From Escherichia coli (GTDB taxonomy: Bacteria; Pseudomonadota; Gammaproteobacteria; Enterobacterales; Enterobacteriaceae): DNA of 64,000 bases. Of this stretch, positions 34,748 through 34,774 are shown piece by piece. The notes beneath the pieces are model-generated. The model saw only the letters and a list, made by a program, of their open reading frames with translations. It searched no databases and was not told the DNA's origin. Each line of letters starts with the position of its first letter. Position 1 is the first letter of the stretch. The DNA is taken from assembly GCF_003334815.1 (NCBI RefSeq), contig NZ_QOWO01000015.1; one strand, 5' to 3'. The translations under genes and the position numbers were made by a program.

Positions 34748-34774
34748 TTATCGGCAAGGGACGGGTAATCTTTA
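34748..34774 (-). promoter_or_regulatory. Sigma-28 (FliA) class 3 promoter for flgMN
   Basis: Minus strand reads TAAAGATT-N11-GCCGATAA, matching the sigma-28 consensus TAAAGTTT-N11-GCCGATAA. Confidence 0.7.

Follow-up and report, generated by a model that had tools for sequence, protein, structure and literature searches.

The 64,000-nucleotide stretch of Escherichia coli DNA analysed here (the window, for short) carries on its minus strand, in the gap between flgA and flgM, a site that we are highly confident is the class 3 promoter from which sigma-28 (FliA) directs transcription of the E. coli flgMN operon. This promoter is already known, to the point of being textbook material, and its identification brings no new biology. 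The assignment is based on the sequence itself, its statistical significance, its conservation, occupancy in vivo, selection in vitro and the transcription start (+1) used by others, and the export-coupled feedback in which the promoter would participate is derived from what is established about the flagellar cascade. The preliminary description of this DNA had placed two 8-mers separated by an 11-nt spacer on the minus strand at 34748-34774, and these coordinates prove to be exact on a direct read:

34767-34774, minus strand: -35 element TAAAGATT, read directly, with 7 of 8 positions agreeing with TAAAGTTT
34756-34766, minus strand: spacer ACCCGTCCCTT, 11 nt, read directly
34748-34755, minus strand: -10 element GCCGATAA, read directly, with 8 of 8 positions agreeing with the consensus
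34782-34780, minus strand: flgA stop codon TAA, read directly
34704-34702, minus strand: flgM ATG, from the list of open reading frames

Along the minus strand, the order of the sequence blocks is flgA CTG TAA, GCTGT, TAAAGATT, ACCCGTCCCTT, GCCGATAA, ATAAGCAACACATGATAAAAGCGCCCTCAATGAGGAATAAACC and the flgM ATG, and the whole motif is contained within the 75-nt flgA-flgM gap. The distance to the start codon, put at about 45 bp in the preliminary description, comes to 43 nt when the nucleotides separating GCCGATAA from the flgM ATG are counted. With respect to the sigma-28 consensus, TAAAGTTT-N11-GCCGATAA, 15 of the 16 positions agree and the sole mismatch falls in the -35 element TAAAGATT, which bears out the characterization of the site as a near-perfect FliA consensus. 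The -10 element is intergenic, so that a substituted form of GCCGATAA, for example GCCTCTAA, would leave flgA unaffected.

The gene names flgA, flgM and flgN, which had been assigned at the outset, are those found both from the open reading frame list and in the RefSeq annotation; the names used throughout are taken from the RefSeq annotation of the identical E. coli K-12 DNA. The local gene arrangement is as follows:

33990-34406, minus strand: flgN, FlgK/FlgL export chaperone, second gene of the flgMN transcript (open reading frame and RefSeq annotation)
34411-34704, minus strand: flgM, anti-sigma-28 factor, 97 aa, first gene of the class 3 transcript (open reading frame and RefSeq annotation)
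34780-35439, minus strand: flgA, whose class 2 flgAMN transcript reads through the sigma-28 promoter (open reading frame and RefSeq annotation)
35440-35593, no strand assigned: divergent flgA-flgB intergenic region with FlhDC-dependent class 2 promoters (FlhDC ChIP-seq peak)

From 35594 onwards, flgB and the genes beyond it are in divergent orientation. Published coordinates were transferred with an offset of 1,094,647 between the window and NC_000913.2, fixed via the flgM coordinates 1129058-1129351 of Kim et al. The FlhDC ChIP-seq peak at NC_000913.2 1130152, which is assigned to flgAMN, corresponds to approximately position 35505 of the window. Cho 2014 gives the transcription unit as flgM;flgN, and the data of Fitzgerald 2014 (PMC4183435) favour two operons that overlap, flgAMN and flgMN. 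A scan of the minus strand between these two genes, flgA and flgM, for a terminator-like site that would uncouple class 2 read-through from flgM gave no match. The earlier statement that flgM is under class 3 control holds, with the nuance that its control is not of a purely class 3 kind, given the class 2 co-transcript with flgA.

The interpretation of the site as the sigma-28 promoter of flgMN, originally offered on the strength of the letters, agrees with what has been published on FliA binding. Table 2 of Fitzgerald, Bonocora & Wade 2014 (PLoS Genet, PMC4183435; correction PMC4203485) gives the FliA ChIP-seq motif for flgMN in E. coli MG1655 as TAAAGATTACCCGTCCCTTGCCGATAAA, that is, the identical 28-mer at the same locus, the window being 100% identical to MG1655 here. 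The ChIP-seq signal is 48-fold above threshold (FAT 48), with the peak centre at 1129384 and the motif centre at 1129409 of NC_000913.2 (PMC4183435); in the window, the peak falls at 34737, which is 25 nt downstream of the motif centre, and the authors attribute such downstream displacement to FliA being bound within the holoenzyme (PMC4183435). An in vitro genomic SELEX experiment detected a sigma-28 holoenzyme peak in the flgM/flgA spacer (Shimada et al. 2017), and a review describes the flgM P2 promoter as sigma-28-dependent. According to the Fitzgerald 2018 preprint, all 52 sites were fused to lacZ, with FliA dependence seen in 15 of the 20 intergenic cases; the non-responders named there are fliA, fliD and fliL, along with the high-background intergenic pntA and cvrA, so by elimination the flgMN fusion would be one of the 15.

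To what extent is such a site to be expected in a sequence of this length? The pattern TAAAGTTT-N11-GCCGATAA with at most one mismatch has the flgMN site as its only match on both strands of the 64 kb and was found in none of 100 dinucleotide-preserving shuffles; at the three-mismatch level, there were 3 matches in the window against 0.56 expected. For scoring with a FliA matrix, as proposed in the preliminary description, we employed the 51 other ChIP-seq motifs in Table 2 of Fitzgerald 2014, omitting flgMN to avoid circularity, and a second matrix made from strongly bound sites only. The flgMN site scores 24.4 bits with the leave-one-out matrix and 27.3 bits with the strong-site matrix, which is the top score on either strand of the window and the second among the 52 bound sites, behind tar, and which exceeds the best score in each of 200 shuffled windows (19.8 bits at most, or 20.1 with the strong-site matrix). 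The next best score in the window belongs to another published FliA site:

42894-42921, plus strand: flgKL FliA site TCAAGTCCGGCGGGTCGCTGCCGATAAT, published ChIP-seq site (FAT 47), 19.9 bits

Two further FliA-like sequences, one at 58465-58492 on the minus strand (17.4-17.8 bits) and the other at 36828-36855 on the plus strand, inside flgD (16.0-17.3 bits), were considered and set aside as probably due to chance; both score within the range of the shuffles and are absent from the 52 ChIP sites.

The evolutionary conservation of the site was assessed by scanning one genome per species, which yielded 80 Enterobacteriaceae loci encoding FlgM from approximately 25 genera, including Escherichia, Citrobacter, Salmonella, Enterobacter, Buttiauxella, Lelliottia, Cedecea, Kosakonia, Atlantibacter and Phytobacter. 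All 73 distinct flgA-flgM gaps contain the -35 core TAAAG, with positions 6-8 conserved at 81-95%, and all 73 contain the -10 core GCCGAT, followed at position 7 by A in 97%. The spacer is 11 nt long in 73 of 73 gaps and comes in 46 distinct sequences, with a per-column identity of 42-88%. Judging by this alignment, the spacer is constrained in length and free in sequence, and a pair of invariant blocks whose separation is constant while the intervening sequence varies freely is the arrangement expected of a sigma-factor recognition site. When 71 orthologous gaps were scored with the E. coli matrix, all fell between 18.2 and 25.5 bits, compared to a maximum of 11.8 bits in 213 coding controls of equal length. 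Within the species, the 101-nt region is present in all 5426 complete E. coli genomes, with at least 99% identity in 5303 of these.

The start of the flgMN transcript, for which the evidence is secondary and comes mainly from published flgM constructs, would be located as the sequence predicts:

34740-34741, minus strand (NC_000913.3 1130164/1130165): +1 of the published constructs, an A, 7-8 nt past the -10 element

The primers EHO-714 and MHO-240 of Romilly 2020, which were used for the T7 template and for '5'UTR + flgM CDS', begin AACACATG / AACACATGATAAAAGCGCCCTCAA, at position 34741. This is the seventh nucleotide after GCCGATAA, in agreement with the preliminary description, which had predicted initiation about 7 nt past the -10 element. 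The flgM fusions in the same work, designated '+1 to 105', end after codon 23, which implies a 36-nt leader and puts +1 at 34740. In the Fitzgerald 2018 preprint, flagellar FliA promoters are stated to have their start sites 18-22 bp past the motif centre; the rule as given there places the flgM start at 34744-34740, an interval that includes both 34741 and 34740. The AAC at 34741-34739 is 96-99% conserved across the orthologues.

How much does this promoter contribute to the expression of flgM? It is conceivable, although we consider it distinctly less than an even prospect, that the site is a genuine FliA-bound promoter that is nearly silent in E. coli, with flgM expressed essentially from the class 2 flgA promoter, in which case the site would matter only at unusually high FliA activity, for example, in flagellar repair or swarming. 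Such a possibility is suggested by RNA-seq of motile MG1655, in which deletion of fliA takes flgM from 451 to 318, a change that is not significant (PMC4183435), and by the conclusion of the same authors that FliA adds very little to dual-regulated transcripts under their conditions (PMC4183435). The drop in flgM is modest because the class 2 flgA promoter reads through into flgM, and most of the flgM mRNA under those RNA-seq conditions appears to come from the class 2 promoter, with a small class 3 share. This is a quantitative nuance and as such does not contradict the explanation of the site as a sigma-28 promoter. Near silence is, however, difficult to reconcile with the finding that fliA overexpression in an flhD deletion brings flgM back to wild-type levels or higher (PMC4183435), with the rank of the promoter as the second-best matrix match among the 52 sites, and with the invariance of both elements over approximately 25 genera, which indicates selection for function. 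A promoter of low output thus refines the assignment to sigma-28 and does not replace it.

The other alternatives that have to be weighed concern the identity of the site rather than its strength, and the main one is prompted by a 5' end that does not fit FliA. The TSS-seq tables of Kim 2012 and Cho 2014 contain a single flgM 5' end, at NC_000913.2 1129417, with 14-21 reads and a sigma-70 assignment; it corresponds to position 34770 on the minus strand of the window, inside the FliA -35 element. No start at 34741/34740 is listed in these tables, and neither is any other start between 1127006 and 1143673 of NC_000913.2, the flgA, flgB and flgK promoters being absent as well. The cells used there apparently did not express the flagellar regulon, which makes the lack of a FliA start uninformative; for this locus, the supplements of Cappable-seq and Romero 2014 contain no entry. 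Could the conserved sequence, then, serve some other signal, either a sigma-70 start at 34770 or processing of the flgAMN mRNA, with the likeness to a FliA site being incidental? This end comes from one laboratory, and upstream of it, at 34814-34787 on the minus strand, there is a sigma-70-like TTGATG-16-TATAAA (9 of 12 positions). As the source of the 34770 end this sequence was rejected, given that position 34770 lies 17 nt past the -10 hexamer and is thus misplaced by about 10 nt, and a generic sigma-70 scan yields no match on the minus strand near 34770. The site is marked by both FliA ChIP-seq and sigma-28 SELEX, and two invariant blocks of 5 and 6 nt at a fixed 11-nt spacing make up the pattern of a sigma-28 promoter, all of which renders a different signal very improbable. 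The 34770 end itself may be a minor start independent of FlhDC and FliA, or a processing site. Finally, short motifs do arise by chance, and the window holds two three-mismatch matches to the consensus, yet a fortuitous match devoid of function is hardly worth entertaining for a sequence that has no counterpart with up to one mismatch in 100 shuffles, outscores every shuffle with the matrix, is conserved in 73 of 73 orthologues and is occupied by FliA in vivo; this explanation is already refuted.

With the sigma-28 promoter retained as the explanation, it is instructive to compare it with other promoters of the class. The sigma-28 promoter of tar-tap-cheRBYZ (TAAAGTTT-N11-GCCGATAA) shares with flgMN the pair of 8-mers, the 11-nt spacer and, going by the published flgM constructs, a start at an A a few nucleotides past the -10 element, and differs in its matrix score (27.0 bits for tar vs 24.4 for flgMN), the -35 element of flgMN, TAAAGATT, being one substitution away from TAAAGTTT. 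Unlike tar, flgMN is also reached by a class 2 transcript, and for that reason flgM expression survives the deletion of fliA, whereas tar expression goes from 251 to 0 (compared to 451 vs 318 for flgM). In this respect flgMN resembles flgKL and fliDST, in which a FliA promoter likewise lies inside or behind an FlhDC-dependent operon, resulting in early and late transcription; the distinction is that the flgMN product regulates FliA itself, in an autoregulatory loop, whereas flgKL and fliDST encode structural proteins and chaperones. A class 3 promoter of flgM in Salmonella enterica was reportedly the subject of work by Gillen and Hughes in 1993. That promoter has the orthologous position and the same architecture (flgAMN/flgMN), and in S. 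enterica arizonae and diarizonae (loci L014 and L032) it reads TAAAGATT-N11-GCCGATGA, with one substitution in the -10 element (GCCGATGA). For the Salmonella class 3 promoter, Fitzgerald 2014 (PMC4183435) cites Wozniak et al. 2010.

Salmonella and most of the other genera differ from Escherichia in having a leader that is about 15-20 nt longer. In the window, the leader comprises these features:

34705-34739, minus strand: flgM 5' leader, from a direct read and the orthologue alignment
34716-34712, minus strand: Shine-Dalgarno sequence GAGGA, 7 nt before the ATG
34712-34724, minus strand: conserved block CCCTCAATGAGGA around the Shine-Dalgarno sequence, present in 73 of 73 orthologues and varying only in its 3-nt centre

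Between the start region and the Shine-Dalgarno block, Escherichia is without a segment of about 15-20 nt (cf. window 34725-34733) that is present elsewhere, as seen on comparison of loci L002-L081, and the -10 element is correspondingly 43-45 nt away from the ATG in Escherichia vs 57-66 nt in the other genera. The extra segment of these genera contains short inverted repeats, for example GTCAGGCGC...GCGAA. The arms of CCCTCAATGAGGA could form a 4-bp hairpin that would sequester the Shine-Dalgarno sequence. A regulatory RNA structure in the flgM leader was considered and rejected: the E. coli leader shows no stable fold relative to shuffles (z = +1.56), the CCCTC-NNN-GAGGA block displays no covariation, its CCTC/GAGG arms being invariant, and no Rfam family matches within the flgA-flgM gap. 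The conserved block is most simply interpreted as the ribosome-binding region. The small RNAs OmrA and OmrB pair with codons 1-9 of the flgM mRNA (Romilly 2020).

A separate observation concerns the 3' end of flgA. The RcsB/RcsAB box consensus is TAAGAATATTCCTA, or TN(G/A)GAN4TC(T/C)NA. A near-palindrome, TGGGAATATTCTTA on the minus strand at 34804-34791, is centred at about -57 from the flgM +1, and its plus-strand complement, TAAGAATATTCCCA, agrees with the RcsAB-box consensus TAAGAATATTCCTA at 13 of 14 positions. No other match to that consensus with at most one mismatch occurs in the 64 kb, and one of 100 shuffles contained such a match; the loose pattern TN(G/A)GAN4TC(T/C)NA is not significant in the window, with 4 matches vs 2.1 expected. 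Codons -8 to -5 of flgA, which encode Asp-Gly-Asn-Ile, are GAT, GGG, AAT and ATT in 97-100% of 73 Enterobacteriaceae sequences, compared to the 2-4 codons in use for other, equally conserved Gly and Asn residues of flgA, where the commonest codon accounts for 38-73%. Going by codon usage, the DNA of the final flgA codons is more strongly conserved than the protein would require. Of 76 distinct sequences, 71 carry the palindrome; its distance upstream of TAAAG is 16-17 nt in 61 cases and 37 nt in the 10 Buttiauxella-type gaps, so the action of the box, if any, is not strictly phase-locked to the promoter. In Atlantibacter, the palindrome is absent and the FliA promoter is retained, which makes the promoter independent of the box.

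A speculative prediction, for which we would not claim more than a slender likelihood, is that the palindrome is an operator for RcsB (envelope stress) or another NarL-family regulator that would adjust flgM transcription independently of FlhDC. Such a putative operator might also explain the non-FliA 5' end at 34770. Should this be the case, and should the site prove not to have been described before, the palindrome would matter as a regulatory input into the synthesis of the anti-sigma factor. Papers mentioning 'RcsB box' together with flgM and flgA do exist, and a literature phrase search for an RcsB site at flgM returned nothing usable.

Elsewhere in the window, the following matches exceed the Rfam gathering threshold; they are known E. 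coli features, unrelated to the flgMN promoter:

1597-2227, minus strand: three RtT repeats with tRNA
7827-7918: ES056 sRNA
18013-18055: ES036 sRNA
27184-27233, minus strand: PyrC leader
48968-49304, minus strand: rne 5'UTR element
51166-51334, plus strand: SraB sRNA

The place of the sigma-28 promoter in the flagellar cascade can be outlined as follows. Export of FlgM upon completion of the hook-basal body frees FliA for the class 3 genes. Early in assembly, flgM would be expressed from the FlhDC-dependent class 2 promoter as part of flgAMN, this being the first source of the protein because flgM lies downstream of flgA, and FlgM would hold FliA in an inactive state up to the completion of the hook-basal body and its own export. 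The freed FliA, within RNA polymerase, would then recognise TAAAGATT as the -35 and GCCGATAA as the -10 element, 11 bp apart, and initiate at the A located 7-8 nt downstream (window 34741/34740), yielding an flgMN mRNA whose leader measures about 37 nt and whose two genes code for FlgM, the anti-sigma factor, and FlgN, the chaperone. By firing the flgMN promoter, the sigma factor would transcribe its own inhibitor, and the resulting negative feedback would tune the activity of FliA and supply FlgN for late assembly. In methodological terms, the case amounts to the location of an alternative-sigma promoter from raw sequence at single-base accuracy. In biological terms, the promoter belongs to the classic FliA-FlgM checkpoint, of which it forms one arm and through which the expression of flagellar genes is tied to assembly.
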